From: Candidatus Iainarchaeum sp.
GTDB lineage: Archaea > Iainarchaeota > Iainarchaeia > Iainarchaeales > 0-14-0-20-30-16
Assembly (NCBI GenBank): GCA_028710695.1
Contig: JAQTTP010000011.1
Span: 1-24,179 of the forward strand
DNA length: 24,179 bases
Direction of reading: 5' to 3'
Position 1 is the stretch's first letter. Each line of letters starts with the position of its first letter. This document shows, in pieces, positions 1,920 to 20,992 of the stretch. A program made the position numbers and the translations under genes. The notes beneath the pieces are model-generated. The model saw only the letters and a program-made list of their open reading frames with translations, had not been told where the DNA came from and did not search any database.

Positions 1920-2006
1920 CTAATATTTTCTGATCCAACCCCAAATATAATGTCTTATTCTCCCAAAAAGGAGAAAATATATAGTTTTCTATCATATAGT
2001 AAATAT

Positions 2007-2744: not shown

Positions 2745-2753
2745 GGTTTTATA

Positions 2754-3293: not shown

Positions 3294-3302
3294 GTTTTAC
3301 AA

Positions 3303-3815: not shown

Positions 3816-3876
3816 ACAAAATAAAGTATAACAAATAATAAAAATACAGTCTATAAATCAACAAAAAGATTAGTTT

Positions 3877-5227: not shown

Positions 5228-5228
5228 A

Positions 5229-6461
5229 CTATTCACCAAAATAAATGTTTTTTAATTCAAATAACATATTATATTCAGATAGTGACAAGTTATTATTCTT
5301 TACTATCTTCCAGCAAATGTTAACGTAATTTTGCATAGACTCAAATGCTGCAGACAACTTGAAATTATTTACTGCATTATTAAATAGATTAATTTGCACA
5401 GCCAAATCTTGTCTAATTGATTCATTATTTTTATCCTTATTTGTTTGCAATATTTTTTTAAGTTTTAAATATATTTTTAATAAATCTCGCGTCTGCAATT
5501 GCAGTTTTGATGGATCTATAACCTTATCCTGATTAATATTATGTTTCAAAAAATAAGCTCGCAAAATTTTGTTATTAATGCCTTTAAATAATTCTTTTTG
5601 AGACCCATCGTCTTTTTGCCATTTTAATTTTTTTCCATCTGGACCTAATAAAAGGCCATGCGATACAATTTTTGTAGGGCAGTCATTATTATTAAGGTAA
5701 CATAGAGAATAATAATCAAATTTTTTTATAACATCCCCATGTATCCAAACTCTTTTTGTATATTTGTGACTACAAAGAATTGCAGGAAGCATTATGGCAG
5801 CAAACCGCGGATCCAAATTAAATCCATTATATTCTATTGTATAGGCCCTATTTTTTTCTAAAATAAGGTCATAAGTTTCAGGTAGAGAAAATACAAAGGT
5901 TTTTAGTTTTTGCCTGATACAGTTAGGAAAAAATGCTATTGTGGCCATTTTTCTCTCAATAGTTTTTCTATTTATCTTTTTAAAAAGACTAGTTTTTGTT
6001 TGAGAAATTAGGGGGCGATTACATTTTTTACAAGAACAGATAGTTGGGTCTGAGCCATATATATTACCACAACTACTACATTCTATTATATTTGTTTGCC
6101 CCACAGTTATTGAATCTTTGTATGTGGTTTTAAACAACCGAACCAAATTTTTTTTGATTTTATCGTCTCTAACAATATAATCAAAGGACAAATAATGATT
6201 TTTTAAATCTTTTTTTATTTGTTTTATGGCAAGCAAGATATATTTTTTTATATTGTCTTTTGTAGGGGCTTTATTTTCAAAGGTAATTTGCTTAATTAAT
6301 GGTTCACCATTAATATTCAACAGAAAAGGAGCAAATACCTTTATTCCTGCAAGTCGCCTGGCTTTTGCATAAAAATCAGCAATTGTTAAATCATAAATAT
6401 TTCCCACACTTAGGCCTTTTTTTATCTGAGTTGGTGCAATAATAATTATTTCAGAATCCAT
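5229..6461 (-). CDS. Methionyl-tRNA-synthetase-like class I aaRS paralog with degenerate HIGH and KMSKS motifs
   Basis: Collinear with the MetRS layout. IIIIAPTQIKKGLSVGNIYDLTIADFYAKARRLAG corresponds to the P-x-x-N-G-x-x-H-L-G-H region, with SVGN in place of HLGH. Zn-knuckle cysteines are retained (CSSCGN...CSCKKCN). HGLLLGPDGKKLKWQKDDGS has KLKWQ in place of KMSKS. LRAYFLK is followed by a helical C-terminal domain. I prefer the ATG at 6461 (MDSEIIII), which has GGAGT 7 nt upstream, over the listed 6554. Confidence 0.6.
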   Translation of the reverse strand: MDSEIIIIAPTQIKKGLSVGNIYDLTIADFYAKARRLAGIKVFAPFLLNINGEPLIKQITFENKAPTKDNIKKYILLAIKQIKKDLKNHYLSFDYIVRDDKIKKNLVRLFKTTYKDSITVGQTNIIECSSCGNIYGSDPTICSCKKCNRPLISQTKTSLFKKINRKTIERKMATIAFFPNCIRQKLKTFVFSLPETYDLILEKNRAYTIEYNGFNLDPRFAAIMLPAILCSHKYTKRVWIHGDVIKKFDYYSLCYLNNNDCPTKIVSHGLLLGPDGKKLKWQKDDGSQKELFKGINNKILRAYFLKHNINQDKVIDPSKLQLQTRDLLKIYLKLKKILQTNKDKNNESIRQDLAVQINLFNNAVNNFKLSAAFESMQNYVNICWKIVKNNNLSLSEYNMLFELKNIYFGE

Positions 6462-7224
6462 TTGTTTTACTCCGCTTTTTAAAGGCAATATAGTCTTGGA
6501 ATATTCTTTTATCCAAATAAGTAAGAAATTCATATGCAACTTCAACATCCTCATCTGTAATGTTTATTGGCCTATTTACTTTTATCTGCAAAAATTTTTC
6601 TGGGTTTATAGGGGGTTCAAAAATATCGTAAAATGCTTTGAGAGCCGTTTTCTTATCTAAAGGATATATTTCTTTTGTTGCAAGAGCATATAATGCCCCA
6701 TATATGCACCATTTCATCATGAGTATTCTGCCGTCTTGGTCCAAATTCTTGTTAATTAGTAACTTTCTTGCTTGATAATTAAGAGAATTTATCACCCTTA
6801 CTGCCTCAATAATTATTTCTGATTTTGAAAATTTTGTTGACTTAAAATAGTTTTCTCCAATCAATTGATTACCATATAGTTCTATTTCTTTTTGCATATA
6901 TAGTCCACGGTTATTATGCCAAAAGACTTCTTTTCTTATTGCTGGCACATCGTCACAACTATGGACATTTATATCAGTTATAACCCCTTTTTCGGCATAT
7001 TTCTTTTTTATTTTCTTCAGCTTTTTTAATAAACTAATATCTGGCTTTTTAATAACTAATAATATATCAAAATCGCTTTTTATACAAAAATCTTCATTCA
7101 ATGTACTACCATAAACAGTTGCACTAAGTATTTGATCTTTTAGATCAGTTAGTAGATCTTGTTTTATATCCTGCAAAATTTTCTCTCTATTGCTTTTGTT
7201 TTTTATCTTTAGATCTAAAGTCAT
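6451..7224 (-). CDS. Pol-beta-superfamily nucleotidyltransferase with a C-terminal helical domain (KNTase/ANT-like architecture)
   Basis: Minimal NTase signature YGSTLNEDFCIKSDFDILLV (G-S ... D-x-D), followed by about 150 aa predicted helical. I prefer the ATG at 7224 (GAGGA 5 nt upstream) over the listed TTG at 7236. The 3' end overlaps the MetRS-like gene by 11 nt. Confidence 0.7.
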   Translation of the reverse strand: MTLDLKIKNKSNREKILQDIKQDLLTDLKDQILSATVYGSTLNEDFCIKSDFDILLVIKKPDISLLKKLKKIKKKYAEKGVITDINVHSCDDVPAIRKEVFWHNNRGLYMQKEIELYGNQLIGENYFKSTKFSKSEIIIEAVRVINSLNYQARKLLINKNLDQDGRILMMKWCIYGALYALATKEIYPLDKKTALKAFYDIFEPPINPEKFLQIKVNRPINITDEDVEVAYEFLTYLDKRIFQDYIAFKKRSKTNGF

Positions 7225-7344
7225 TATAATCCTCAAAATAAGCCATTCCTAAGGCAAAATTGCCATTTTTATATTTTATGGAGAGAATATATTTTTAAAG
7301 AGATGTAACTAAGTAGTTGCGATTACTCTATTTAAAGAAGAATT

Positions 7345-8181
7345 TTATGTTTTATTGTTTATTTTCTGCAGATATTTACCTAATTTATAATAAACCCATT
7401 TCTGATTTGGGAAATGTGCTTGTTTTAACAAGCCATTAAAAGAAAGCCATTTATAAGCTATATGTTCATCACTTAATTTTAGCTTTTTTTCTTTTGTAGT
7501 TGCGGCAAAATGAGTTACATATGCTTTTCTTAGGCCCCCTTTACTAACATAAGTATGCATAGTAACAAAATATTCATTTTTAAGATCATAATTAGTAATT
7601 CCTGTTTCTTCCATTATTTCTCGTTTAACTGTTTCTGTTGTTGTTTCCCCTTCTTCTGTTCCGCCTTTGGGAATATTCCAATAAACTTCATCCTCAAGAT
7701 TATGCCTAAGAAGTAAAAACTTTTTTAGATTTGGATTATACAATAAAGCCCCGGCACCATTTCGAATACAAAAATCACTGGCTTTTTCCAAAAGTTCTTG
7801 CCTATTTAAAATTTTTCTAGAATATATTAAATTTCCGGCATTCTTTTCAGTTATTATTTCAAAATAGTTTTTAGAAATTCCAAAACCAGCAATATGCCAC
7901 AATTGTGTTAACTCGTCTAATAGTTTTTGTGGGCTCTTTTTAGATAAATATTTGTTTAGATCTTTATCTTTAACAAAAATCAGCTCTAATGGTTCTTTTA
8001 CTGTTTTTAGCAAAGTTTTTATTTTTTCTTTCGTATTATTTTCTGACAACACAATTAATAGTTTTAGTTTATTAAGATTTATTTCATTATAAAGAACATT
8101 TGCAGATGAAAAATCCAGCCTATTATTCATCAGAGTTTCTTTTATTTTTTCAAATGCAGAAAAATAGGAAATATAATCCAT
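7345..8181 (-). CDS. Nudix hydrolase with an unrecognised N-terminal domain of about 140 aa
   Basis: Complete Nudix box GGTEEGETTTETVKREIMEETGI (G-x5-E-x7-R-E-x2-E-E-x-G-U) in the C-terminal half. The N-terminal half has no motif I can name. Confidence 0.8.
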   Translation of the reverse strand: MDYISYFSAFEKIKETLMNNRLDFSSANVLYNEINLNKLKLLIVLSENNTKEKIKTLLKTVKEPLELIFVKDKDLNKYLSKKSPQKLLDELTQLWHIAGFGISKNYFEIITEKNAGNLIYSRKILNRQELLEKASDFCIRNGAGALLYNPNLKKFLLLRHNLEDEVYWNIPKGGTEEGETTTETVKREIMEETGITNYDLKNEYFVTMHTYVSKGGLRKAYVTHFAATTKEKKLKLSDEHIAYKWLSFNGLLKQAHFPNQKWVYYKLGKYLQKINNKT

Positions 8182-8196
8182 AATCTAAATCACTCA

Positions 8197-11100
8197 TTAA
8201 TATAATCTCTTCACAACTTCTTCTACAACTTCTTCTGGGAACTCTTCTTTATCCAGAACTTGTCTTATTTCTTCTTTTGTGTATTTGGCTTTTACTGGTT
8301 TAAGTTTGTTTACTAGCTCTTCGATTTTGTCTTTGTATTTAGAATAAACATCGCCTTCAAAATTGGTTTTTATTAATGCTTTCTTTTTGTCATCTAAACT
8401 TAATTCGTTGTGGCTCTCTTCCTTTATCTGTTTATCCTTAACTTCTACTTTTTCTCTCATTGCGGAAATCTTAGACTCCAAAACCCTGATCTTTTGCTCT
8501 AACTCAGTTTTCTGTTTCTGGAATTCTTCTTGAGTTATTTTCTGTTGGAACATATCTCTTGTTAATTGTGATAAAGTTTTCTTCGCAGTTTCCAGTTCAG
8601 TTTCATATTCTTCTATGCTCTTTCCTTTTTGGGCTTTGTGCAAAATCTTTCTTACTCTCCAATAAATTATTCCAGCAATTATTGCTCCAATTATTACTAA
8701 TAAAATAATCAGCCAAATAGTTGCAGAGAACAAGGGGCTCACAAACCCAAGATCTTTTTCTACATTTACGGTATTTCCCAGATCATCTTCTCCAGAAAAA
8801 TTAATTGAGGCATTTCCAAATAATGGAATTCCATAATCTGCCTCATAAATTCCATCCGTATTTTTTTCGAATAAAACATTCTCATCATCTACTGCTAAAG
8901 AAATTGTATTTGCATCATAGCTCAGCCCATTTTCATAATTTATCCTCACTTTCAAATTTGTTTGGAGATAACTTCCATCCTCTCCAGGATTAACCATTTC
9001 AATATTCAATTTATTGCTTAGCTTGAACTCTTTTGTTTTCTTTGCACTTACTAGAACCCCATTATATTCTGCTTGTGCAACAAAATCAATTGATTTTTTG
9101 TCGCCAGTCTTTTCATTAAGCGCATATAGCCCAATGAACCTGTTTTTATTAGCAGTATCTTGTGTTAACTGTATTTGTTTTCCATCATCCAAATAAACAA
9201 ATAAAGGTTTTATTTCTTTTTCACTTTTTATCTTTACTTCTATTGGAATTTCTTGGCCATAATTTATTGTAGTTATTTTTTCATTTGGTTCTACAATTTC
9301 CAAATCAATTATTCCAGTTACATTTTTTACTTCATATTCTTTTGATTTGTATGTTTTAGAAACATAATTTGTGTATTTGTCTGTAACATCAAATTTGAAA
9401 TATAATATTCCTGTTTCAACATCTTTGTCGCTTATGGAATAATCCAAGTAGGCAATAAAACAAGTCTGCTCTTTTTCTAGAGAATATTCTTTCTTTTCAT
9501 ACCCTTGTAGAATAATTTTTCCGCCATTTATATCTGAAGAATAATTCTCGCTATCTTTATCTTTAAAACATACATTTACAGAGTTTATTTTTGAGCCCAA
9601 CGAAAAAGTTTCTTTTCCGGGTTCTCCGGCAAAAGAAGTATCCAATTCCAATATCGGAACAAGCTCTTGTGGCACAATATATATTTCCACACTTTTCTTA
9701 GATTTTAGGTTCAAGCCACCAGTAGACACGCTTGCAGATACTTCTACAAAGTTCTTTGCATCATTGTAAATATTTCCAATAAAGGTTCCCTCATAATTTC
9801 CACTTGATGTCTCTGGCAGAGAAAACACAACACCATCTTTTAGTTGTGCAGTAACTGTTGCGCTAGTAATTGCTTTTCCAGCATTGTCCAATAATTGCAC
9901 ACGGATTTTATATTCATCGTTCCTTAAAATGTCCGCATTCACAAGGGGCTCTTTAATTATAATATTCAGATTCGCACTTACAATATCAATACTCTTTGTT
10001 TTTTCTATCCAACTTCCTTTGTCATCTTTTACTTTCAACTTGATTTCATAGTCTCCTTCTTTCTGGTATGTGTGTTTCAAGCTTTTTGTTGTCCCTTTTG
10101 TTGTACTATCACCGAAATCCCATTCATAGGAAACAGTTCCAGCACCAGAATAAGTATAATCTGCTGTAAGAGTAACCTCTTCCCCTACTTGCGCTTTATC
10201 TGGACCAGATATTGTTAGTGTAGAGAAATACCCTTGCACAGTACCTTTGTCAGCAAAGGCCTCATCTCCTGCTTGATTATTGTTCGGAGTTATAGAGCAC
10301 TGAACTTCTGTTCCTTGCGGGCATAAAGCAGGAGTACACTTAAACTTGGATGCAATTTCCCCAGTTTTCACAACCCCATTCAAGTACCATTTATACCCCA
10401 AGCTTATTCCAGAAGATGGATCATCAGCATCACTCTTTCCAGAGTTCTGACAAGAAATTTCAGAATCAGGATATGGTGTAGTAGGACTAACTGCAACACC
10501 AGTAACTGTTGGCTTTGAGTCAATTATAGAAAAATCAAGTTCTTTAGTTGAACTTAAAATAGTATCATTACATACAATAGTCACTTTCTTTGAGCCTGTA
10601 CCCAAATCTAAAGCATTAAATGGGCCAAGTTCCATTTCTTTTTGTTCCCAGGTTGCACCACTATTATTTGTTGCGGATTTAGTTCCAATTGTTGCAGTGC
10701 AAGTAAGTGCACTTCCACCTGTATCATCTGTATTGTCTTTCACATTCAAAAGAACATTAAAAGAATGATTCTTCCCTACCTGTGTTACTCCTTCAGACCC
10801 GCTATTTATATCATAAATCACTGGAGTTTCCATTACTGGATTTCCAGAAAGAACTGATATTGTTTCAGACCCAGACCAATTAACTACTGGATCTGGGTTA
10901 CATACCCCCATTTTCATTTCACAAACAGCCCAATTAAAAACATCTTGTTCTCGGGCGGTATTACTTTGTTTAAGGTGGAAAGTTAGGGTGAAATCTCCTG
11001 AAATCGCCACTTGCTTAATTCCAAAACTATTGAAATATTTATTATTAGGATCATAACAAGCTTTATTATCACAATTAGAAATATTCTCAGAAACACCAAC

Positions 11101-11346
11101 TTTATCTAAATCAGTAGGTAAAGAAAAATAATTTTGATTATCGGAAATTGTTAGCCGATATTTAACTGGATCTGCAATAAATCCATCAAAACTAAACTTC
11201 ACAGTTACATCTTGAGAGTCTGTAAAGATTTGGTTTCCGTTGGATGGATTTAGAACTTCTGAGGAAATTAGGGAAACTGAGAAAGAAATGCCTATTAAGA
11301 ACCAAAAAAAGAATAAGAAAAATGACTTTATAATCAAATTTGTCAT
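8197..11346 (-). CDS. Large type I membrane surface protein (1049 aa) with PKD/Ig-like domains and a charged coiled-coil cytoplasmic tail
   Basis: N-terminal signal/anchor (FFLFFFWFLIGISFSVSLI). PKD signature YEWDFGDSTTKGTTKSLKHTYQKEGDYEIKLKVKDDKGS. Long beta-rich ectodomain. C-terminal TM (IWLIILLVIIGAIIAGIIYW RVRK), then a K/E-rich heptad-like tail of about 150 aa. A TATA-like TTTAAATA is centred about 26 nt upstream of the ATG. Confidence 0.8.
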   Translation of the reverse strand: MTNLIIKSFFLFFFWFLIGISFSVSLISSEVLNPSNGNQIFTDSQDVTVKFSFDGFIADPVKYRLTISDNQNYFSLPTDLDKVGVSENISNCDNKACYDPNNKYFNSFGIKQVAISGDFTLTFHLKQSNTAREQDVFNWAVCEMKMGVCNPDPVVNWSGSETISVLSGNPVMETPVIYDINSGSEGVTQVGKNHSFNVLLNVKDNTDDTGGSALTCTATIGTKSATNNSGATWEQKEMELGPFNALDLGTGSKKVTIVCNDTILSSTKELDFSIIDSKPTVTGVAVSPTTPYPDSEISCQNSGKSDADDPSSGISLGYKWYLNGVVKTGEIASKFKCTPALCPQGTEVQCSITPNNNQAGDEAFADKGTVQGYFSTLTISGPDKAQVGEEVTLTADYTYSGAGTVSYEWDFGDSTTKGTTKSLKHTYQKEGDYEIKLKVKDDKGSWIEKTKSIDIVSANLNIIIKEPLVNADILRNDEYKIRVQLLDNAGKAITSATVTAQLKDGVVFSLPETSSGNYEGTFIGNIYNDAKNFVEVSASVSTGGLNLKSKKSVEIYIVPQELVPILELDTSFAGEPGKETFSLGSKINSVNVCFKDKDSENYSSDINGGKIILQGYEKKEYSLEKEQTCFIAYLDYSISDKDVETGILYFKFDVTDKYTNYVSKTYKSKEYEVKNVTGIIDLEIVEPNEKITTINYGQEIPIEVKIKSEKEIKPLFVYLDDGKQIQLTQDTANKNRFIGLYALNEKTGDKKSIDFVAQAEYNGVLVSAKKTKEFKLSNKLNIEMVNPGEDGSYLQTNLKVRINYENGLSYDANTISLAVDDENVLFEKNTDGIYEADYGIPLFGNASINFSGEDDLGNTVNVEKDLGFVSPLFSATIWLIILLVIIGAIIAGIIYWRVRKILHKAQKGKSIEEYETELETAKKTLSQLTRDMFQQKITQEEFQKQKTELEQKIRVLESKISAMREKVEVKDKQIKEESHNELSLDDKKKALIKTNFEGDVYSKYKDKIEELVNKLKPVKAKYTKEEIRQVLDKEEFPEEVVEEVVKRLY

Positions 11347-11398: not shown

Positions 11399-12220
11399 GT
11401 GGAGTTTAAAGTAATAATTAATGAGAACGCAACTAAATTAGATGCAATTTGGAGCGGTCTAGGGCCATACTCACAAAGATTCGTAGCAAGATCTTCTATT
11501 TTATTTCAATTTGATAAGAACATGTCAAAACTATTACTTACAAGAGATCTAATAATGGGCTCTTGGCCTGAGTTTATGTCCCATTATTTATTCAATAAAA
11601 AAACAACTGACACAAATACAAAACTTGCAAAGAAACTATTAGATAAAACAAAAGTTCCAGATTGGAACCTAAAAAGAAAAATACTGAATTCAAAAAAGCA
11701 AGAGTTAGAAATAATTATTTTAAAAAACTTAGAAAAAATTAATTTTTTCTTCAAAAATATTATTGGGCATGAAATAGATAATGTATCTATTTTTTTGGCA
11801 TATTCTGCAGATGGAGAATTTGGCTTTGGGGGTTGTTGTTTGCCAACAAAGGAACCAGCAATAATGCTACGATTGTGCAAGTCCTCAAAAATAACTAACA
11901 TTTCTATAATTGTTCATGAATTAATGCATCTCGCAATAAGAAATTGTAACGAAAGAAATAAACTTAAAACGATTGGGCACGAAGCAGAGGAAGCACTATT
12001 TGATTTGCTTTGTGCAATGTTCCAAAATGAAAACAAGATAGATTATAAAAAAACCATAAAACAAGACATTGCTGATAGAGATGGATACCACAAAAAATAC
12101 ATTTATGAAATCTATAAAATGATAAAACCAATTTTAAACGGTAAAGAAGACCTTGTTTGGAAATATATTGATTGGGAAAAGTTAAAAGCCATTAAAAAAG
12201 GTGAGAAAAATCATAACTAA
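11399..12220 (+). CDS. Hypothetical protein with an HExxH zinc-metallopeptidase motif
   Basis: IIVHELMHLAI, followed by GHEAEEALFD as a possible third ligand region. GTG start as listed, so the start is uncertain. Confidence 0.5.
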   Translation: MEFKVIINENATKLDAIWSGLGPYSQRFVARSSILFQFDKNMSKLLLTRDLIMGSWPEFMSHYLFNKKTTDTNTKLAKKLLDKTKVPDWNLKRKILNSKKQELEIIILKNLEKINFFFKNIIGHEIDNVSIFLAYSADGEFGFGGCCLPTKEPAIMLRLCKSSKITNISIIVHELMHLAIRNCNERNKLKTIGHEAEEALFDLLCAMFQNENKIDYKKTIKQDIADRDGYHKKYIYEIYKMIKPILNGKEDLVWKYIDWEKLKAIKKGEKNHN

Positions 12221-12806
12221 TTTTGACACTCTAATTAAATTACCAATACCCTGCAAAAAAATACTTTCAAAAGAAATAACAGAAAAAAACATTAAAAATT
12301 TAAAAAAACTTTTTGAATTAACCAAAGCTAACGGAAAATTAGGACTAAAATATAGTATGAAATCTTATGATACCTATTCTAACTGCAAATTACCAACAGT
12401 GGTTTGGAAAACAAAATCAGGACATTGCTTTGAACTGTCACTATTTTTACTGGCTTGTTTAAAATATTTGGGCTTTAATGCCTATTATTATGAAATGCCA
12501 AACTTCAAAAAGTGGGATCATGCGTGTGTTTTAATAAAAGTGAACGGTAAATCAATATCTGTGGATCTTGGAAGAAAAATATTTAATGCAAAATACAAAG
12601 GATATAATAGACTAACTAAAAAACAAACTCTCGGGAACTATTTTATAAATTGTGCACATATGCTTTATCCTTGGAAATGTAAATCTAAAAAATTAAGTAA
12701 AAAAGACAACATAACACAAAGACAAAAAGCAATTAAGTTTGCAAAACTAGGTCTAAAATATTATCCAAATTCGAAAAGAGGAAAAATTATACTTACGGGA
12801 GATTAA
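12201..12806 (+). CDS. Transglutaminase-like cysteine-protease-fold protein
   Basis: Candidate Cys-His-Asp core: SGHCFELSLFLLACLKYLGFNAYYY, then WDHACVLIKVNGKSISVD. GTG start overlapping the preceding gene by 20 nt. Confidence 0.55.
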   Translation: MRKIITNFDTLIKLPIPCKKILSKEITEKNIKNLKKLFELTKANGKLGLKYSMKSYDTYSNCKLPTVVWKTKSGHCFELSLFLLACLKYLGFNAYYYEMPNFKKWDHACVLIKVNGKSISVDLGRKIFNAKYKGYNRLTKKQTLGNYFINCAHMLYPWKCKSKKLSKKDNITQRQKAIKFAKLGLKYYPNSKRGKIILTGD

Positions 12807-12820
12807 AAGTAAAGGAAGAG

Positions 12821-13576
12821 TTACTTAACAACATCTAATTCTTTTTCGTGTTTTTTTGCGAATTTGTAAGCCCATTTTAAGTAATCGTCAAAAGTTTTGC
12901 CTTTTTTGTAAATATCTTCTGCATATTTATCTTCAAAATAATGTTGTATTGTTCTTTTTCCTATTCTATTCTTATAAAAACAATCATAACTATAATGTGG
13001 TCCGGGGAGAATTTTATTAAATTTTTTGTCATTTAAAATCACAGAAACCAAAATTTCAGAGAGAATCCATTCAATATGTGGCCCGCCATATTTTTGTTTT
13101 GAAACATCAGGGAATAGTTCTCCAAACTTTTTGAAATATAGCAGATGAGTTATCTCGTGTGCAGCAATTCCAAAAACTCTTTGTGTGGGCCAATCGTATG
13201 GAATATAAAAATTCATTTTCTCTATGTTTCGTGGAAATACTTTGCATAAAGAAAGATACGCTTCAATTTTTTCTGGGTTCTTAAACCAAGGGGTGCCAAT
13301 CACATCAGACAAATTAGTCATAAACTCTTTTTGTATTTTGTTCCATTCTTTTTGATAATGACCAACATTAACTTTTGTTTTTCTTCGTTTAGTCTTCCAC
13401 TCACCTTTTAACCAGCCAGTTATATCTAACTTTGGTTCTTTAAGAATAGAGTAACTATCTAAAAAACGAAACTTAAAAGACTGATTACTGTGTTGCAAAA
13501 AATGATTAAAAGCCCAGATTTCTTTCTTTATTGGAACTATTTTGAATTCAACTTTTGGATAAGACATAAAGATCAC
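12821..13576 (-). CDS. HExxH motif protein (putative zinc metallopeptidase), last gene of the candidate RiPP operon
   Basis: GIAAHEITHLLYF. GTG start forms a GTGA overlap with the kinase stop; an alternative ATG lies at 13567. Only 14 nt separate its stop from the convergent gene ending at 12806. Confidence 0.5.
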   Translation of the reverse strand: MIFMSYPKVEFKIVPIKKEIWAFNHFLQHSNQSFKFRFLDSYSILKEPKLDITGWLKGEWKTKRRKTKVNVGHYQKEWNKIQKEFMTNLSDVIGTPWFKNPEKIEAYLSLCKVFPRNIEKMNFYIPYDWPTQRVFGIAAHEITHLLYFKKFGELFPDVSKQKYGGPHIEWILSEILVSVILNDKKFNKILPGPHYSYDCFYKNRIGKRTIQHYFEDKYAEDIYKKGKTFDDYLKWAYKFAKKHEKELDVVK

Positions 13577-14493
13577 TTTTTATGCCCTAATATTTTTATT
13601 TCTCCAGGATTTAAATTAGGGGTCATTTTGTCACCAGTTTTTAAAAATTTTGTTCTGTTTTTACTGCTCAATTTAAAAATTAAAAAGATTATTCTATTTT
13701 CATATTGTTTTTCCCGTATTTTACTATTTGATTTTATGCAACGTGTGTACATTTCCATAAGAAAATATATTGAATAAAATAAGTATAAATCATTAGTTGA
13801 AATTAATTTATTTAGTTCTTTTTTTCCATAGGCCTCAAAGAAAGCATCAGTAATTATTGACATTTCAAAGTTGCCGTGGCTTCGCACAAACATTTTAGAC
13901 AATATATTAGTTAATTCAAAATATTTATCCCCGACAATAAATTTATCCCAGTCTATGATTTTTAGTTTTTCTCGGTGTAGAATTATATTTTTGGGGGAGA
14001 AATCGCCATGTAATAGCCTTTTTTGAGGGCTGTAATTTATAAACCTTTCTCGCCATATTTTTTTTAATATTTTTATATACTTTTTGTTTTCGGGGATACA
14101 AATTTCGTCAAGCTTATAGTTTAGTAAATCAGACCAGGATTTAAATTTGTTGCCTTTATATAAATAACGTTTATGGGTAATGTTATGTATTTTTCTGTAC
14201 ACCACACCCATTTTTTTAAACACTCTGATCTCATCTTTTAAACTTAGTAAATTCAAATTTAGTTGGTTTCCTTCAATAAAAGGGTATGTTATGGCATTAG
14301 TTGAAATTATTATATTGGGCGTAAAAAATGGTTTAAATAATGGAAAAAAAGCATAAATCTTTTTAATATTTAAGGGGGGGCCAAATGTTTCTCTATATAC
14401 ATAGTTCTTATTTTTAAATTTAAAGAGATATACATTATTGGCAAAGCCGTTTGCAATATATTCTTTATCTATAACATTTATTTTTGTTTGCAA
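13573..14493 (-). CDS. Aminoglycoside-phosphotransferase (APH) / choline-kinase-fold kinase
   Basis: Catalytic loop LLHGDFSPKNIIL (H-G-D-x4-N) and metal-binding IIDWDKFIVGD. N-terminal GFANNVYLFKF nucleotide-loop-like segment. TTG start with GGAGG 6 nt upstream. Confidence 0.75.
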   Translation of the reverse strand: MQTKINVIDKEYIANGFANNVYLFKFKNKNYVYRETFGPPLNIKKIYAFFPLFKPFFTPNIIISTNAITYPFIEGNQLNLNLLSLKDEIRVFKKMGVVYRKIHNITHKRYLYKGNKFKSWSDLLNYKLDEICIPENKKYIKILKKIWRERFINYSPQKRLLHGDFSPKNIILHREKLKIIDWDKFIVGDKYFELTNILSKMFVRSHGNFEMSIITDAFFEAYGKKELNKLISTNDLYLFYSIYFLMEMYTRCIKSNSKIREKQYENRIIFLIFKLSSKNRTKFLKTGDKMTPNLNPGEIKILGHKK

Positions 14494-15055
14494 TAAATCC
14501 CTCCACCGCTTTAGAAATTTTATTGCTGTCCGCAGGCAGCAACAAAGATAACCTCATCCACAACATTTTTCTCCACTCATATAGTTTGGCAATTTGTGAA
14601 ATGTGATCCGTAGTTTCTATAAACTTACCTGGCAAGTTAAGTCCTTGCAGTTTTTTACATACTGTTTTGCCAGCCAAAAGAAAATTTTTATTTTTGTAAT
14701 CTCTGGGACTTAACCAGCCATAATAAAATCCAAATTCGATGATTTGCAAATCGTTATTTTGATCTATATCTTTTGCTTTTTTTATTGCACTTAAATGCAC
14801 ACTCAGTATTTTCCTAGAAATTACTTCATCTTCAAAATTGGGCACCATTTTTATTTCTTTTTTCAGATATTGTAATGCAAAAATGCTTTCTAACATATAG
14901 TTTAAATATATTTGTAATTTCTTATTTTCGGCATACTCTTTTGTATTTAAATATTCTTCGTAGCCAAATGCATTTTCGATAAGGCCTTTTGCTTTTTTTA
15001 GAGAATATCCTTTTTTTATTTCAATTTCACTAGACAATTGTGAATATATGTCCAT
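14465..15055 (-). CDS. Hypothetical protein (about 196 aa, mostly helical by composition)
   Basis: No recognisable motif. I prefer the ATG at 15055 (MDIYSQLSSE...): GGAGG lies 7 nt upstream and the start is 1 nt after the upstream stop. The listed start is 15109. Confidence 0.5.
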   Translation of the reverse strand: MDIYSQLSSEIEIKKGYSLKKAKGLIENAFGYEEYLNTKEYAENKKLQIYLNYMLESIFALQYLKKEIKMVPNFEDEVISRKILSVHLSAIKKAKDIDQNNDLQIIEFGFYYGWLSPRDYKNKNFLLAGKTVCKKLQGLNLPGKFIETTDHISQIAKLYEWRKMLWMRLSLLLPADSNKISKAVEGFIANKNKCYR

Positions 15056-15056
15056 A

Positions 15057-15476
15057 TTAGGGCCTCCGTAATCGTTCAATAACATGTGGAAATATGTTCG
15101 CAGCGTCAATCTTTTTTTCTCTAGGTAGTCCGTGCAACTTATTTTTTAGGCCTGGTTCGTCATAAAACATTTTTTGAATAATTCTTACTATTCGCAATCC
15201 AAAAATATTATTCCCATATTTTTTGCTTCTACTGAAAAACATTATCTTCCCATTAACTTCCTTGACCCATCCGCCCCATACAAATTGTTCTGTGTCTTTA
15301 GAACCAACAGATTTATGTAATATTTCAGTATGATTATCTCCTTTATTACCCGTCATGACCACTATCGTGTTATTTTTTGGCAAATACAAAAAAATAAATT
15401 TTTGGGGGGCTTCAGTAACAAATAAATTAAGTTTTATTTTATAACCCAGATAATTAAACTCTTTAATAAGATTCAT
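15057..15476 (-). CDS. Hypothetical protein (about 139 aa)
   Basis: No recognisable motif. I prefer the ATG at 15476 (MNLIKEFNY...), which has GAGGT 8 nt upstream, over the listed TTG at 15485. Overlaps the radical SAM gene 3' end. Confidence 0.5.
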   Translation of the reverse strand: MNLIKEFNYLGYKIKLNLFVTEAPQKFIFLYLPKNNTIVVMTGNKGDNHTEILHKSVGSKDTEQFVWGGWVKEVNGKIMFFSRSKKYGNNIFGLRIVRIIQKMFYDEPGLKNKLHGLPREKKIDAANIFPHVIERLRRP

Positions 15477-17013
15477 ATTTTTCAACCTCTGGACAACGTG
15501 GATCTAAAATACCTTTATTTTTTTTATAAAATGTTAAACAACCCAGACCACAGCAGGATTTGTGTTTACAACTTTTGCAATGACTGTTAGTTAAACCTTG
15601 TTTAAAAAACGTTGGTTTTTTTAACAATATTTCTTCTAGGCTATTAGTTTTTATATTTCCAATTGCATATTTTTCAGGCAATAACAAACAACCATTTACT
15701 TCCCCAAAGGCATTAATGCTAATACGCCTGTTAAAAGCACTACAAGAAATGTCAGACCGCATTTCTGTAGTAGGTAAACCAAAACGAAATGCAAACATTA
15801 CAGTGTCAAATAATATTGCAATATCGGTGTGATGCACAGTTAATTCATTGTAAATTTCAATATATTGACTATAGGGAATATGTAAATTTTTTGCATTTAA
15901 GCCAGACCCTATTGGAAGAAAATAGTTCAATTTTATTTTTTTTACTCCGACCTCTACTAAATTATCAACTAATTGCATAATATTTTTTTTATTAATTGCA
16001 TTTACTACAATTACGATAGTAGGATTCAAGCCATTATTTATTATCTTTTTTATATTCTCTAAAACTCTGTTTTTTTTATCTACACCTCTTAAAAACAGAA
16101 AGTCTTTTTCGTCTATTGAATCAAAACTAACCCCAAAATTATTAATTTTTTTTAGAACGCTTATGATTTTTTTATTAATAATTGTTCCATTAGTATTCAA
16201 ATGTATTGCAAATCCTAAAGACTTAGCATAATTGACAATTTTATAAAAATCAGGGTGCAATGTTGGTTCTCCACCAGTAATTGATACAAAACAAAGACCC
16301 TTTTTTTTTGCATCATTAAAAACTGTTTTTATATATTTAAAATCCAGATTATTGCCCTCTTTTTTATTTATATTGGCATAACAGAATTTACAGTTCATAT
16401 TACAATGAGTAGTTATTTGCATATCAAGAATGTCTGGAGAATTAATATCAGATTCATATAAAAAAAATTTCTTTTTAGTTATAGAAAAACAAAAAATGCC
16501 ATCAGTTATAAGATTAATTATAATCTTCTTGGCCGCCAAGCCATATTTTTTATAAAGGTCTTTAATTTTTGTTGTCTGTAAATCTTTAACCAACCGAAAA
16601 CTATTTTTATCTAATTTAATCTTCTTTGTATCTTTATAAATCAAATAATAATCTTTATTTTTCTTAAACAATTTAATAAAGTTTTTTGTTGGAACCAAAT
16701 AATTATCATCAGTAAATATAATCTTACTCTTCTCTATCAACACGTACGCAGAATCTAGAAAATAATCATTAATATTTAATCCAATTATACTGGGGATGTT
16801 AAATTCTCTACTTACAATAGCAACATGGCTTAATATGCCGCCTTCTTTTAAAACTATTCCTTTAATAAATGGGAAATAGTCAAGAATGGAATTAATACTT
16901 CTTTCTAAGTAAATGATTTTTCCGGCATATTTTTGAGGGTTTAATTGCGAGTTATATTTTTTTAAAACCCCAAAAATGGTTCCGCTATAATTTAGTTGCC
17001 CTTCAAAGATCAT
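15463..17013 (-). CDS. Fusion enzyme: PEP-utilizer mobile (phosphohistidine swivel) domain + PqqD/RRE-like segment + radical SAM + SPASM domain
   Basis: aa about 8-100: GKIIYLERS...IKGIVLKEGGILSHVAIVSREFNIPSIIG (PEP-utilizers swivel domain with the conserved SH His). aa about 118-175: DYYLIYKDTKKIKLDKNSFRLVKDLQTTKIKDLYKKYGLAAKKIIINLITDGIF (RRE-like). CNMNCKFC (C-x3-C-x2-C, nt 16381..16404) and ITGGEPTLHP. C-terminal seven-Cys SPASM pattern CSAFNRRISINAFGEVNGC ... CKSCKHKSCCGLGC. Confidence 0.85.
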   Translation of the reverse strand: MIFEGQLNYSGTIFGVLKKYNSQLNPQKYAGKIIYLERSINSILDYFPFIKGIVLKEGGILSHVAIVSREFNIPSIIGLNINDYFLDSAYVLIEKSKIIFTDDNYLVPTKNFIKLFKKNKDYYLIYKDTKKIKLDKNSFRLVKDLQTTKIKDLYKKYGLAAKKIIINLITDGIFCFSITKKKFFLYESDINSPDILDMQITTHCNMNCKFCYANINKKEGNNLDFKYIKTVFNDAKKKGLCFVSITGGEPTLHPDFYKIVNYAKSLGFAIHLNTNGTIINKKIISVLKKINNFGVSFDSIDEKDFLFLRGVDKKNRVLENIKKIINNGLNPTIVIVVNAINKKNIMQLVDNLVEVGVKKIKLNYFLPIGSGLNAKNLHIPYSQYIEIYNELTVHHTDIAILFDTVMFAFRFGLPTTEMRSDISCSAFNRRISINAFGEVNGCLLLPEKYAIGNIKTNSLEEILLKKPTFFKQGLTNSHCKSCKHKSCCGLGCLTFYKKNKGILDPRCPEVEKYESY

Positions 17014-17908
17014 ATAATGCGCCCCTTAGGAAATCAAATAATTTTTTGTTATTATATATGTGTCTTTGTTTTTTAAAAGAAAGCATACTTTTTATTATAG
17101 AGTCTTTTTTAAGGCCATATTCAAGCTTTAAACCGTTAATATTAGATAAGGCTTGATCTTGAATCACTAATCCAAGGTTATATTTAGTAATAATTTGAGT
17201 ATTAAGGGCTTGCTCAAGATTTGCAGGATGTATGTAAATATATGGTTTATTGAGATACATGCTTTCAGAAAGAGAACACAGCCCCGGATGTGTTACAATT
17301 ATTTCATTTTTTGCAATAATTTGTGAAAAATGCTTACGGCTCTTACTAAATACTAGCTGTGATTGAAGTATATTTTCTTTATCCCATATTGCGTTTTTGG
17401 TTTTATAACTGCCAATAATTGCCAAGCCAGAGCCATTTGTTTTTTTAATTTTTGTTATATAATTATCAACAAAAAGAAATTTATTGTATTTGTCGCCCCA
17501 GGGCGTTTTATTTTTTGTCAATGATGACAAAAAACAGAAATCGGATTCCCTTATGCCCTTCTTAAATAAATTAAGGCGCTCTTGAAATAAATTATGCTTA
17601 AATAGGTAATTCCAATAATCCCCCAAATTATCTATAAAAATGTCTCTTCCACTAGTAGGGATATTTCTTGGGTCTATTATATGTATTACAATGTCTTTTT
17701 TAGTTACTTTATAATTTGGGTCATAACATAAATGATGGCAGTAATTTTTTTTTATAAAATCATGTCTTTCTATAGAAGGGGTTTTTAAAATACATTTTCT
17801 ATTTGGAAATAAGATCAGTAAATTTTGAACTATTTGACCCAACATTACTGCAGGACCAAATCCGTTCATTGATAAAAAACACACAATTGCCATACAGGTC
17901 TTATCCAT
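17003..17908 (-). CDS. GT-B-fold glycosyltransferase-like protein (GT1/GT28 MurG-like C-terminal signature)
   Basis: IVTHPGLCSLSESMYLNKPYIYIHPANLEQALNTQIITKYNLGLVI resembles the THGG-x-x-S-x-x-E ... P ... D/E-Q-x-x-N-A ... G donor-binding region of GT1/GT28 enzymes. The start ATG overlaps the stop of the upstream 40-aa ORF (ATGGATAA). Confidence 0.6.
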   Translation of the reverse strand: MDKTCMAIVCFLSMNGFGPAVMLGQIVQNLLILFPNRKCILKTPSIERHDFIKKNYCHHLCYDPNYKVTKKDIVIHIIDPRNIPTSGRDIFIDNLGDYWNYLFKHNLFQERLNLFKKGIRESDFCFLSSLTKNKTPWGDKYNKFLFVDNYITKIKKTNGSGLAIIGSYKTKNAIWDKENILQSQLVFSKSRKHFSQIIAKNEIIVTHPGLCSLSESMYLNKPYIYIHPANLEQALNTQIITKYNLGLVIQDQALSNINGLKLEYGLKKDSIIKSMLSFKKQRHIYNNKKLFDFLRGALYDL

Positions 17909-18023
17909 CTTGAGAAGGATCTTGACAATGTGGTGCAGAACAATAATTTTCTTTTTTATATGTTAGTTTATTATTTTCTTCGTCTTTTTTTATTTTGCTC
18001 TTTTTTATAACTTTTTTATCCAT
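17901..18023 (-). CDS. Small ORF (40 aa), candidate RiPP precursor peptide: MDKKVIKKSKIKKDEENNKLTYKKENYCSAPHCQDPSQDG
   Basis: Hand-translated; it is below the ORF-track length cutoff. A perfect AGGAGG at 18031..18036 lies 7 nt upstream of the ATG (18021..18023). The stop overlaps the next gene start by 8 nt. The ORF fills an otherwise unexplained 126-nt gap in a tightly packed operon. The Lys-rich N-terminus and Cys-containing C-terminus resemble a leader/core layout. Confidence 0.5.
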   Translation of the reverse strand: MDKKVIKKSKIKKDEENNKLTYKKENYCSAPHCQDPSQDG

Positions 18024-18030
18024 TTTTATT

Positions 18031-18036
18031 CCTCCT
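18031..18036 (-). promoter_or_regulatory. Shine-Dalgarno site (AGGAGG) for the 40-aa ORF, overlapping the TAG stop of the upstream surface-protein gene
   Basis: The minus strand reads GTT AAT TAG GAGG AATAAAA ATG. This is the same 6-8 nt spacing seen at other internal genes in this window. Confidence 0.6.
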
Positions 18037-20920
18037 AATTAACAGTATAAATTGCATAACCTAAATCATCTTTGTTATTTATGTTTCCGGTCATTGGTTC
18101 GTCTATAAGGCCAAATACTACGCTTGCATTTTGACCTTTAGTTTGAACTGAAAATGCATTTGCTGTAGATTGACCTATCTGGTTTGAATTTGAACCTATT
18201 GCATAGGGAACATAATTATAAGTCTTACAAGTTGGGCTGTTTACTTTCGCATAACTTGTTTCTGTGTATGCAATAAAATCTGCGCCAACTAGTTCAGAGA
18301 TTATCATACAAACTTGCTGGTTGTACAAAGGAACTGCAAAGTAATTTAACATACTTACTTGTAAAGAATATGTTTTATTTTTATTCAAAGCTGTGCCGTC
18401 TGCAGGGTTAAATACGGCAGATAATCCTTTTGATACATCCACTGCTTCAAAGCTTGCGCCAGTTTCATAACCAGCAATTACTTTGCTTTCATCAGTATTC
18501 ATCCATGACAAATATGCTTTTCCTTTTGATAATAAGAAATATTCACCATCTGCACCAAATTCTGTTGGCATAATCTCTTGCTCTAGAACTAATTCATCTA
18601 AAGCAGGAACATCTACTAATTGGCAGTAAACATTCTGATAAAGGACTTGGCCATTAGACATTGGTTTTAATAAGCCGTTCTGAGAAACATAACATAAATT
18701 CAAATCATTCAAAGGAACATCGTATAGATTTGTGATGTGGACTTTGATTTTTAATTTATTATCTTTTGGAACTTTTCCATATAATGTAACACCCCAAAAA
18801 CCTGCACCATCATTATCGCCCATGTCTTGCCACATGGATACTAAACCATTTCCTGCCGCATAAAAGATGTCTTTGGTTTCTATTTGCTTAGAGTCTAATT
18901 GCTGGCCGTTAAGCATTAACATTATGTTGTAAATCTTTTCTGTGTTCTCAACTGTTGTGTGGAACTCGCTCTCTTTTGTGGAGTTAGGCTCGATCTTGGG
19001 AATAAGTTCAGTAATTGTTGTGTGGCCTTCTGGCTGACCATCAAAGATAACTAGCTCTGTTGAGCTTGCTGTTACTTCTATTCCCTCTAAATAGATGCTC
19101 AGATTGTTGGTAACATAAACTTGGAAGTAAACTTCGTAATCTAATGGAACTGTGTGAGGAACATCTACTGTTGCAGTTACGTCAGCAGGAGATACTTTTG
19201 CTAAACGGAAGATATTGGATTCTACTGTTTTATCGCCATCAGAAGCTGTTACTTTGACATCGGAGTAGCCTTGTGATGTAATGTTACAATACAATACTTT
19301 GTTTTCAATATTACAAATTGCCGGGCCATTTAAAACTAAATAATTGTAAGATAGTTCTTGACCTTCAGAATCAGAGAACATACCTAAAAGATCTTTTGAA
19401 AAAGATAAATTTGAACCTGTGGAAGTTTTACCAATAATTTTGCCAGAGAATACCGGTGCCAAGTTATCTTTAGACCAGGATACAGAGATTTCTTTATCTA
19501 CTTCATACTGGCCATCAGAAGCAGAAACTGACAAAGTAGTGGAAATTGGGTATATGGTGGTTGAACAGGATAGGTTAGGTCCTACTAGTCCACAGTTTAA
19601 ACCACCATTATCTTTTATTTCGAAATATAAAGTAGAGGAAGGGTTGTCCACATCAGACACAAAATTCGCTAAGTTTAGATTCAAGGTTTGGCCTTCCTCC
19701 AAGTTATTAATTGGAATGGAGTTCCAAGAAGGAGCATCATTTACATTTGAAACATTTACTTTTAGATCACCAAAGGCAGTATTGCCTTGTGGGTCTTCTG
19801 CTTTAATCATAACAACAAAAGCACCATAAGCATCCTTTACAAGAGAGCAGTTTAGTGTGAAATTATCTACTTCACAAGATATTCCACTTGCGGGAGCAAT
19901 ATAATCAACTGATAAAGATAATTCGTTTGTAGTGTTATTTGGATCTTGAACATAAGGTAACAAGTTAATTGATCCTATTTGTGTGTCTTCCTGAACATTT
20001 ATTGTTGGAAGATCTGTAAAATAAGGAGAGCTACTGTTTTTTGTTATCTCAATTGGTGCTTGCTCGTATTGATTTGTGACTATGTCCTTTACTTCCAAAG
20101 TATAATATTTTGTGCCTTCTGAAATCTGGTTACAAGTTAGAACTGACCCAGAGATATTACAATTTGCGGGGTTCTCTAACAATTTGTAAGTTAATTTGCC
20201 TAAGGCGAAATCGTAATAGTCAATATAATTTTTTAAATCAACTAAAATGCTTGATTCATTTGTTTGAATAATTACTGGATCAATAGAAACCTCTTTTATT
20301 GGATAAAGAGTAACTTTTAAGCTCCTCAAAAAAGGGCTTAGATAATCGTGATCTGTGCTAAGGGTTATTTCTACATTTGCTGAAGATGTCTTTCCTAAGA
20401 AAGCATAGTTGTTGTATTGGGAGTCATTAACTTTAAAGCTTACTTGTGTTCCTTCAAGAACTAAAGCATCTTCTTCAAGTTTTACTGCGTAGATTAAGGA
20501 TAAAGAATCGAATTTCAGGTCTTCTAATGTAAAGGAGCCTTTTGGGTTATATTCCATATAGGCCTTTTTAGAATCTTTTGAAGTATAAGATAGTTTTATT
20601 CCGTGCTCTTCTTGGCTTAAACTAGACCAGTTTCCCGAGTAAAATAGATATTGGCCATCGGGAACAAAAGAGAAATTAAATTCCTTTGGGCTTGAGGCGG
20701 GCAAAGGCATTGCATCAGGCAGATATCTTTGTATAGGAATGTCTCTCTGAGGGATATATTGTGGTACCTTGTGAGGAACCTTTGGAATGAATCCATCAGC
20801 ATAAGTAAGGGAGAAAATCAAGAAAAATGCGAAAAATAATAGTATAAAAGATAGGATTTTATGGATTGGTACTTTCATGGGGCGTTTTACCGCTGACCCA
20901 TTCCGATATAGAACTCCCAT
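18035..20920 (-). CDS. Large secreted/surface protein (about 960 aa) with repeated Ig/cadherin-like beta domains
   Basis: Signal peptide KILSFILLFFAFFLIFSLTYADG. Repeated beta-rich modules, including a cadherin-like boundary NVSNVNDAPSW. No C-terminal TM. Start uncertain: the ATG at 20920 lies about 27 nt downstream of TTATAAAT (leaderless candidate); the ATG at 20878 and the listed 20989 are alternatives. Confidence 0.75.
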   Translation of the reverse strand: MGVLYRNGSAVKRPMKVPIHKILSFILLFFAFFLIFSLTYADGFIPKVPHKVPQYIPQRDIPIQRYLPDAMPLPASSPKEFNFSFVPDGQYLFYSGNWSSLSQEEHGIKLSYTSKDSKKAYMEYNPKGSFTLEDLKFDSLSLIYAVKLEEDALVLEGTQVSFKVNDSQYNNYAFLGKTSSANVEITLSTDHDYLSPFLRSLKVTLYPIKEVSIDPVIIQTNESSILVDLKNYIDYYDFALGKLTYKLLENPANCNISGSVLTCNQISEGTKYYTLEVKDIVTNQYEQAPIEITKNSSSPYFTDLPTINVQEDTQIGSINLLPYVQDPNNTTNELSLSVDYIAPASGISCEVDNFTLNCSLVKDAYGAFVVMIKAEDPQGNTAFGDLKVNVSNVNDAPSWNSIPINNLEEGQTLNLNLANFVSDVDNPSSTLYFEIKDNGGLNCGLVGPNLSCSTTIYPISTTLSVSASDGQYEVDKEISVSWSKDNLAPVFSGKIIGKTSTGSNLSFSKDLLGMFSDSEGQELSYNYLVLNGPAICNIENKVLYCNITSQGYSDVKVTASDGDKTVESNIFRLAKVSPADVTATVDVPHTVPLDYEVYFQVYVTNNLSIYLEGIEVTASSTELVIFDGQPEGHTTITELIPKIEPNSTKESEFHTTVENTEKIYNIMLMLNGQQLDSKQIETKDIFYAAGNGLVSMWQDMGDNDGAGFWGVTLYGKVPKDNKLKIKVHITNLYDVPLNDLNLCYVSQNGLLKPMSNGQVLYQNVYCQLVDVPALDELVLEQEIMPTEFGADGEYFLLSKGKAYLSWMNTDESKVIAGYETGASFEAVDVSKGLSAVFNPADGTALNKNKTYSLQVSMLNYFAVPLYNQQVCMIISELVGADFIAYTETSYAKVNSPTCKTYNYVPYAIGSNSNQIGQSTANAFSVQTKGQNASVVFGLIDEPMTGNINNKDDLGYAIYTVN

Positions 20921-20943
20921 ACTTATATATATATGAAGGATAG

Positions 20944-20951
20944 ATTTATAA
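20944..20951 (-). promoter_or_regulatory. TATA-box-like element (TTATAAAT on the minus strand) upstream of the surface-protein / peptide operon
   Basis: Centred about 27 nt upstream of the ATG at 20920. The same octamer occurs at the same distance from the SPOUT gene ATG (22037..22044). Confidence 0.4.
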
Positions 20952-20992
20952 CCCTTATGTATTAACAATCCTAACTGAGAAGCCAACAAAGG

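Follow-up and report, generated by a model that had tools for sequence, protein, structure and literature searches.

What does a phosphohistidine swivel domain do when it stands in front of a radical S-adenosylmethionine (SAM) peptide maturase? The question is raised by one gene in a 24,179 bp stretch of DNA from Candidatus Iainarchaeum sp. (contig JAQTTP010000011.1, positions 1–24,179; ~30% GC), which we refer to throughout as the window. The gene is a 516 aa open reading frame (ORF) on the minus strand (15463–17013) whose product is annotated by NCBI only as a "radical SAM protein". It very probably encodes a maturase of the ribosomally synthesised and post-translationally modified peptide (RiPP) type, in which a swivel domain has been added N-terminally to an enzyme of the SuiB, CteB and SkfB kind, composed of a RiPP recognition element (RRE), a radical SAM core and a SPASM domain. 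The chemical role of the added domain is a more tentative matter, and is weighed below.

The fusion protein and its rarity

A preliminary description, made from the DNA letters, had proposed all four parts of this protein and placed the swivel at residues 8–100 and the RRE at residues 118–175. Domain scans and structure prediction confirm a four-part composition with closely similar boundaries, as follows.

16714–17013, minus strand: swivel (phosphoenolpyruvate [PEP]-utilizer mobile, phosphohistidine) domain, residues 1–100, with the His63 codon at 16825–16827
16444–16713, minus strand: RRE-like (winged-helix) element, residues ~101–190, placed by AlphaFold2 secondary structure and the Foldseek match to SuiB
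15814–16443, minus strand: radical SAM core, residues ~191–400, with PF04055, CX3CX2C and GGEP
15463–15813, minus strand: SPASM domain, residues ~401–516 and the stop codon, with PF13186 and the Cys motif; two auxiliary [4Fe-4S] clusters are predicted

The PEP-utilizers family (PF00391) matches residues 31–80 well above its gathering cutoff (E=3.8e-10, 39.7 bits against 23.1), and more strongly when the swivel segment is scanned alone (E=2.8e-11). The predicted phospho-acceptor, His63, is located in the expected loop (GGILSH63VAIVSREF, with GGILSHVAIV beginning at residue 58) within GGILSHVAIVSREF, and is invariant across all of the family loci. Radical_SAM (PF04055; residues 199–344, E=3.6e-25) and SPASM (PF13186; residues 424–482, E=3.1e-6) also exceed their gathering cutoffs. 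The CX3CX2C motif is present as CNMNCKFC at residues 204–211 (C204, C208 and C211), with the SAM-binding GGEP at 247–250, and both are invariant within the family. A complete SPASM motif (CX12GX4C...CX2CX5CX3C...C) spans residues 424–507; the pattern matches in all four homologues, in which the seven Cys residues (424, 442, 479, 482, 488, 492 and 507) are invariant.

The RRE is the one part for which sequence and structure give different answers. Pfam PqqD (PF05402) finds no match in the fusion protein even at E≤10, and the PqqD-type label in the earlier reading is not recovered by that profile. In the AlphaFold2 model of the whole protein (predicted local distance difference test [pLDDT] score 91.2, predicted template modelling score [pTM] 0.83), however, the segment forms beta strands at 105–134 followed by three helices at 136–170, and residues ~70–516 superpose on the RiPP maturase SuiB. 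The Foldseek match extends over ~450 columns of full-length SuiB (5v1t), including its N-terminal RRE (E=1e-18), with SkfB, CteB, anSME and PqqE next in order. Profile searches with the sequence identify a similar set (SkfB, CteB from residue 135, SuiB and PqqE), and the NCBIfam alignment to the StsB maturase begins at residue 113. The model thus points to an RRE-like fold, recognisable by its structure only. The protein passes none of the curated NCBIfam equivalog cutoffs with which it was compared (StsB, MftC, PqqE, PapB, SkfB, AlbA, NirJ and others), and all scores are far below them. NirJ2 comes highest, at 115 bits where 500 are required, StsB and MftC both score 95 (cutoffs of 625 and 265 respectively), and the PqqE model is also among the matches.

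The combination is found very rarely. An exhaustive HMMER search with residues 1–195 against 1.84 billion representatives gave 402 matches at E≤1e-3, only three of which (P0092, P0004 and P0093) cover the swivel-plus-RRE module. Among the 57 nearest other swivel proteins Pfam detects a radical SAM domain in none and PPDK_N in eleven, and the swivel motif is absent from ~70 loci of more distant radical SAM/SPASM relatives. A database of 5.8 billion proteins contains three other full-length homologues of the fusion (P0002–P0004; 47–58% identity), and a metagenome scan added loci L014–L018, so that about eight loci are available; searches of 185,579 species-representative genomes and of viral contigs gave no close relative. 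The preliminary description knew of no characterised example, and a full-text literature search likewise found no description of a swivel with a radical SAM domain, or of a phosphohistidine carrier in RiPP biosynthesis. The fusion of a swivel to a radical SAM maturase is genuine, very rare and apparently undescribed. We note that the nearest swivel relatives outside the family are giant proteins with three to six tandem swivel domains (P0094, 1832 aa; P0096, 2648 aa; and about 40 others); P0094 contains a PPDK_N fragment besides its five PF00391 stretches, and multi-swivel proteins of such size are unusual.

The operon and the helical partner of the swivel

The fusion gene is the third of six that occur in the same order in about eight independently assembled metagenomic loci. 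Adjacent genes of the window share a few bases, as would be expected of a single operon. In the order of transcription the five other genes are as follows.

17901–18023, minus strand: precursor peptide gene, 40 aa (MDKKVIKKSKIKKDEENNKLTYKKENYCSAPHCQDPSQDG), an ORF two genes upstream of the fusion gene
17003–17908, minus strand: candidate GT-B (GT1/GT28)-like glycosyltransferase, 301 aa (~300 aa in the family), from weak Pfam and PDB profile matches
15057–15485, minus strand: conserved ~140 aa protein (142 aa here) of no known family, conserved in six loci
14465–15109, minus strand: all-helical swivel partner, ~195 aa, within a mechanically called ORF of 214 aa
13573–14493, minus strand: APH-family (eukaryotic-like) kinase, 306 aa (~290 aa in the family), PF01636 E=7.3e-9

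The first gene encodes a RiPP-type precursor, the obvious candidate for the substrate of the fusion enzyme. Its N-terminal half is variable and Lys-rich, and its C-terminus is a near-invariant core of 19 residues, YKKE[N/K][Y/F]C[S/A/T]APHCQ[D/E]xxQD[G/A], with two invariant Cys that are compatible with thioethers of the sactipeptide or ranthipeptide type. Homologous small ORFs are present at the same position in L001, L003/L015, L004 and L017, giving five loci with a precursor. An AGGAGG sequence lies 8 nt upstream of the ATG, and between loci the invariant residues show synonymous wobble changes, with amino acid changes at five or six positions. The ribosome-binding site and this pattern of substitution indicate that the small ORF is a real coding sequence under selection.

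The swivel has a recurrent companion in the helical protein. Its likely start is M19 of the mechanical ORF, giving a 196 aa product (14465–15055) that corresponds to NCBI PHH82_04410, and it is found in every locus that has the swivel. There are three arrangements of the pair. The first (A) is the full six-gene operon. In the second (B), a standalone swivel-RRE protein of 186–187 aa, without a radical SAM domain, is followed directly by the partner (P0092, 69% identity, and P0093, 46% identity; seen in L005–L007 and L094/L095). In the third (C), swivel and partner are fused directly to each other without an RRE (P0011, 313 aa, and P0115, 293 aa). Within B and within C the members share only ~40–50% identity and yet have intact ORFs and the same boundaries, and we conclude that both are maintained architectures rather than products of decay. 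Just upstream of P0092 there is a remnant of the C-terminus of a glycosyltransferase-like gene (L005, 6133–6273; 48% identity to residues 247–300), which indicates that this radical SAM-less module descends from a full cluster. These arrangements show that the swivel-partner unit can exist apart from the radical SAM chemistry, and the direct fusions are Rosetta-stone evidence that the two proteins act together, the helical protein being the likely functional partner of the swivel. It is a concrete candidate to stand in place of the missing ATP-grasp domain.

Structurally, the direct fusion P0011 is informative for both halves. Its AlphaFold model has a pLDDT of 80 overall, and the helical part (~190 residues, ~10 helices) is predicted with pLDDT 85–93. 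Its swivel, 60% identical to that of the fusion protein, superposes on rifampin phosphotransferase RPH-Lm (5fbs; rmsd 2.7 Å over 103 columns, Foldseek probability 1.00), as well as on pyruvate phosphate dikinase (PPDK), the pyruvate kinase C-terminal domain and Enzyme I, and the window fusion model has the same order of secondary-structure elements. For the helical part nothing significant was recovered by a PDB profile search, by Pfam scans of each member (E≤5) or by Foldseek of the P0011 model, or in hhalign comparisons with the 329 aa, 288 aa and 507 aa proteins of L005 (see below). Most of its invariant positions are occupied by basic or aromatic residues (K83, H105, K113, K153, R180, K181, R186 and several Tyr and Trp).

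The ~140 aa protein is well conserved, with invariant K29, N51-H52-T53, G71-G72-W73, S87, K89, Y90 and N92, and has no significant match in Pfam or the PDB; its profile retrieved nothing from the PDB beyond marginal matches to RNase P protein (E=0.013), PHPT1 was not among the matches listed, and an hhalign comparison with the 329 aa protein of L005 was negative. Two faint similarities were followed. Ntox43 is matched in three of six members (E=0.017–0.076, below the gathering cutoff), but Ntox43 is defined by two conserved His residues (PMC3482391) whereas this family has one invariant His, and we rejected the assignment. The second is to the Janus/Ocnus family, to which the phosphohistidine phosphatase PHPT1 belongs: one of six members matches Ocnus in Pfam (E=0.11), and a hidden Markov model (HMM) alignment by hhalign with human PHPT1 (PDB 2AI6), at only P=0.2, pairs the invariant H52 with the catalytic H53, GGW with GGG, and S87-x-K-Y-G with S94-M-A-Y-G. 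An HMM-versus-shuffle test gave p~0.011. A PHPT1-like phosphohistidine phosphatase is thus a possible lead from the alignment, statistically unsupported; if true, it would set a phosphohistidine-handling protein beside a phosphohistidine domain. We also observe that the gene is split by a frameshift into 95 aa and 67 aa ORFs in two separate contigs of the same lineage (L003, 2657–3078; L015, 6780–7090), where the protein may be dispensable or the site slippery.

The two remaining operon genes encode the glycosyltransferase-like protein and the kinase. The former, conserved in five loci, has a GT-B nucleotide-sugar motif (THPGxxSxxES..LNKP..P.N.EQ..N), two Pfam matches below their gathering cutoffs (Glyco_tran_28_C, E=2.4e-4; Glyco_trans_1_3, E=1.7e-4), and a family profile that matches GT1 UDP-glycosyltransferases in the PDB over that motif (8h5d, E=1.3e-5). 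In the kinase the HGDxxxxN catalytic loop and the metal-binding DWD are invariant in five loci, and its nearest solved relatives are aminoglycoside O-kinases, which are sugar-hydroxyl kinases (3w0m, E=5e-9).

The six-gene core contains no conserved protease or exporter. Two unannotated ORFs beside it have HExxH motifs and, without family or PDB matches, are possible candidates for leader peptidases: a 251 aa ORF (12821–13576, minus strand; AAHEITH) whose start overlaps the kinase stop, and a 273 aa ORF (11399–12220, plus strand; VHELMH) with a homologue in L005 (9403–10181). The 251 aa ORF was considered as a member of the core operon and dropped, as it is not conserved in L016 and belongs to no family. 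A 201 aa ORF nearby (12201–12806, plus strand) is weakly transglutaminase-like (E=0.03).

Further out, the operon is flanked by two very large predicted surface proteins, one of 984 aa with a cadherin-like domain (18035–20989, minus strand) and one of 1049 aa with PKD domains (8197–11346, minus strand); a homologue of the C-terminus of the former is also found upstream of the L004 cluster. A three-gene run at 5229–8181 (minus strand) encodes a 441 aa protein with only a weak class-I tRNA-synthetase match (E=1e-3), a nucleotidyltransferase-like protein and a NUDIX protein. Four GNAT acetyltransferases are encoded in the window, and GNATs also lie downstream of the swivel-partner module in L005 and L093.

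Possible roles of the swivel domain

The anatomy of the fusion protein and the link between the swivel and its partner are solid, and from them we infer the following chemistry. The RRE would bind the Lys-rich leader of the 40 aa precursor, and the radical SAM/SPASM part would install one or two crosslinks in the core YKKExYCxAPHCQDxxQDG; because of the similarity to StsB, SkfB and CteB, the product would most likely carry thioethers formed by the two invariant Cys. The swivel, tethered beside the same RRE, would act as a mobile phosphoryl carrier on His63 and, with the helical partner and perhaps the ~140 aa protein, would deliver phosphoryl groups to, or remove them from, the RRE-bound peptide or a sugar added by the glycosyltransferase. 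The phosphoryl donor might be a PEP-synthase-like loader acting in trans, the helical partner as a new donor-binding domain, or the APH kinase of the operon. Two modifying modules, independent of each other, would then share one RRE, and the radical step itself would not depend on phosphate. The preliminary description had raised a coupling of phosphotransfer to radical chemistry; since the swivel-partner unit exists without a radical SAM domain, such coupling is less likely than two separate modules that share one RRE.

For the phosphocarrier role itself we would put the chances a little short of even. One argument in its favour is conservation. By region the mean pairwise identity is 55% for the swivel, 45% for the RRE, 52% for the radical SAM core and 44% for SPASM, and conservation along the protein peaks in the His loop (residues 51–78; consensus GG[IV]LSH[VS]AIV[SCA]REF), with 74% mean pairwise identity and 46% invariant columns. 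A swivel that is as conserved as the catalytic core, and most conserved at its His loop, favours a role for that loop itself. Further support comes from the resemblance of the swivel fold to known phosphocarriers (rifampin phosphotransferase, PPDK and Enzyme I) and from the persistence of the swivel-partner pair in three architectures.

Several observations weigh against a catalytic swivel. As noted in the preliminary description, there is no evident ATP-grasp partner: neither PPDK_N, any other ATP-grasp family nor PEP-utilizers_C is detected by Pfam in the fusion protein or in the 25 ORFs of the window that were scanned (each of at least 117 aa), so neither of the canonical routes by which a swivel His is loaded is present locally. 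The helical partner in turn has no nucleotide- or PEP-binding fold detectable by profile, Pfam or Foldseek searches. The PF00391 match covers profile positions 4–53 of 72, and a top Foldseek match of the swivel is the pyruvate kinase C-terminal domain (2e28); a swivel-like domain can retain the His motif and yet not serve as a dikinase carrier. Finally, no Ser or Thr is invariant in the precursor core across the five loci, which leaves Tyr, His, Cys, Lys and carboxylates as conserved residues that might act as acceptors.

The absence of a local loader can be set beside L005, which contains a second, different and unrelated-looking radical SAM peptide cluster (1584–5979, minus strand). It encodes a standalone 105 aa swivel (PF00391, E=6.6e-27), proteins of 329 aa and 288 aa without assignment, a Cys-rich 41 aa peptide (MGKMKKTNQFNPIIKENIEESEPDSRCQCSCTTTGPCPYCD), a 489 aa radical SAM protein with a long extension at its N-terminus and, as a separate gene product, a 125 aa SPASM protein. 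Adjoining it (4–1527, plus strand) is a gene for a 507 aa PPDK_N and swivel protein that lacks PEP-utilizers_C. In these organisms, swivels thus recur in radical SAM peptide clusters, and it is possible for an ATP-grasp loader to be supplied in trans.

The strongest competing explanation is that the swivel is a non-catalytic docking or regulatory module, which brings the helical partner, and through it further tailoring enzymes, to the peptide held by the RRE, or gates the activity of the enzyme. A docking role had also been raised in the preliminary description; it is possible, but we think it rather unlikely. It would account for the lack of a phosphoryl-donor domain within the window, and the strict co-occurrence and fusion of swivel and partner fit a stable protein-protein interaction equally well. 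There is also precedent in the swivel-like accessory domain of pyruvate kinase, structures of which (2e28 and 3t05) are top Foldseek matches. However, it is the phospho-His loop, not the remaining domain surface, that is best conserved in the whole protein; moreover, at every position of the motif (S-H, then A-I-V-x-R-E) the residue is that of the catalytically active carriers, and the operon retains a conserved kinase that is predicted from its motifs to be active.

A second alternative, which we regard as quite improbable, is that the product is a peptide-derived cofactor or small molecule, as are mycofactocin and PQQ, rather than a secreted peptide, with the swivel, glycosyltransferase and kinase acting on a sugar or on an intermediate freed from the peptide C-terminus. 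The strictly conserved part of the precursor is indeed its extreme C-terminus, the operon combines a glycosyltransferase-like enzyme (compare MftF of mycofactocin) with a sugar-kinase-like APH protein, no protease or exporter is conserved in the core, and the DPANN archaeon that carries the operon has a reduced genome. But although MftC and PqqE are among the NCBIfam matches, and PqqE among the structural ones, the NCBIfam scores are all far below equivalog cutoffs and the top structural matches are peptide-crosslinking enzymes; the two invariant Cys of the core are typical of thioether RiPPs, and the HExxH candidate leader peptidases adjoin the operon in the window.

That the fusion is an artefact of chimeric assembly or of read-through between two genes, for which the existence of standalone swivel-RRE genes (P0092 and P0093) might be cited, is excluded by its conservation at 45–61% identity over about eight independent metagenomic loci, with an uninterrupted ORF of 516–526 aa not only in the window but also in at least seven contigs that were assembled separately and come from different samples, and by the packing of its domains in one confident predicted structure (pTM 0.83).

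Returning to the phosphocarrier reading, its most specific form is a dedicated phosphohistidine relay for peptide maturation, in which an RRE-tethered His~P swivel would be loaded or unloaded by a new all-helical phosphotransfer domain and a PHPT1-like protein, and would phosphorylate a residue of the radical SAM-crosslinked peptide or activate it by way of a phosphorylated intermediate. We consider this full scheme unlikely, although its consequences would be considerable: it would be the first dikinase- or phosphotransferase system (PTS)-style phosphocarrier in RiPP biosynthesis, from DPANN archaea, and would give a first functional assignment to two orphan protein families. Swivel carriers and radical SAM/SPASM maturases are both well studied, and it is their combination that is apparently undescribed. 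Should the swivel be catalytic, it would represent a new route for delivering phosphate to a peptide and would define the ~195 aa helical and ~140 aa orphan families as parts of phosphate-delivery machinery. The pathway would also be among very few natural-product-like pathways from DPANN archaea (Iainarchaeota), and as a small system of six genes with a 40 aa substrate, and with obvious mutational targets in His63, the two Cys and the kinase HGD, it is directly testable.

Comparison with known systems

The closest parallels are with the maturases SuiB (streptide), CteB, SkfB, StsB, AlbA and PqqE, with which the fusion protein shares an N-terminal RRE-like fold, a CX3CX2C core, a seven-Cys SPASM domain and a short precursor gene in the operon. 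It departs from enzymes of the SuiB, CteB and SkfB type in having an additional ~100 residue phosphohistidine swivel before the RRE, and it is only ~18% identical to any solved RRE-radical SAM-SPASM maturase. The precursor core resembles no described RiPP class, and the enzyme comes from a DPANN archaeon.

With PEP synthase, PPDK, rifampin phosphotransferase, glucan-water dikinase and PTS Enzyme I, the fusion protein has in common the PF00391 loop G-G-x-x-S-H-x-A-I-V-x-R-E, and the fold of the family swivel superposes on those of RPH-Lm, PPDK and EIN. The two canonical stations, a PPDK_N ATP-grasp domain and a PEP-utilizers_C TIM barrel, are both missing from the fusion protein and the scanned window; here the swivel instead precedes an RRE and a radical SAM domain, and its companion is a helical protein for which no relatives could be detected.

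Kinase-dependent tailoring of RiPPs is known from the APH-like kinases of class III, IV and V lanthipeptides and thioamitides, and from the HPr-kinase-like kinases of lasso peptides, all of which phosphorylate Ser or Thr directly from ATP; none of these systems is known to use a phosphohistidine swivel carrier. The window operon is similar in having a conserved APH-family kinase with intact catalytic motifs, but differs in that its precursor core has no invariant Ser or Thr and its kinase is closest to sugar-hydroxyl kinases.

Mycofactocin biosynthesis (MftA/B/C and MftF) likewise employs an RRE with a radical SAM/SPASM enzyme, a short peptide with a conserved C-terminus and a glycosyltransferase in the cluster. 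In contrast, the precursor here ends in QDG rather than GVY, the glycosyltransferase is GT-B-like, equivalents of MftD and MftE are lacking, and the swivel, the helical partner and the kinase of the window operon are without counterpart in the mycofactocin system.

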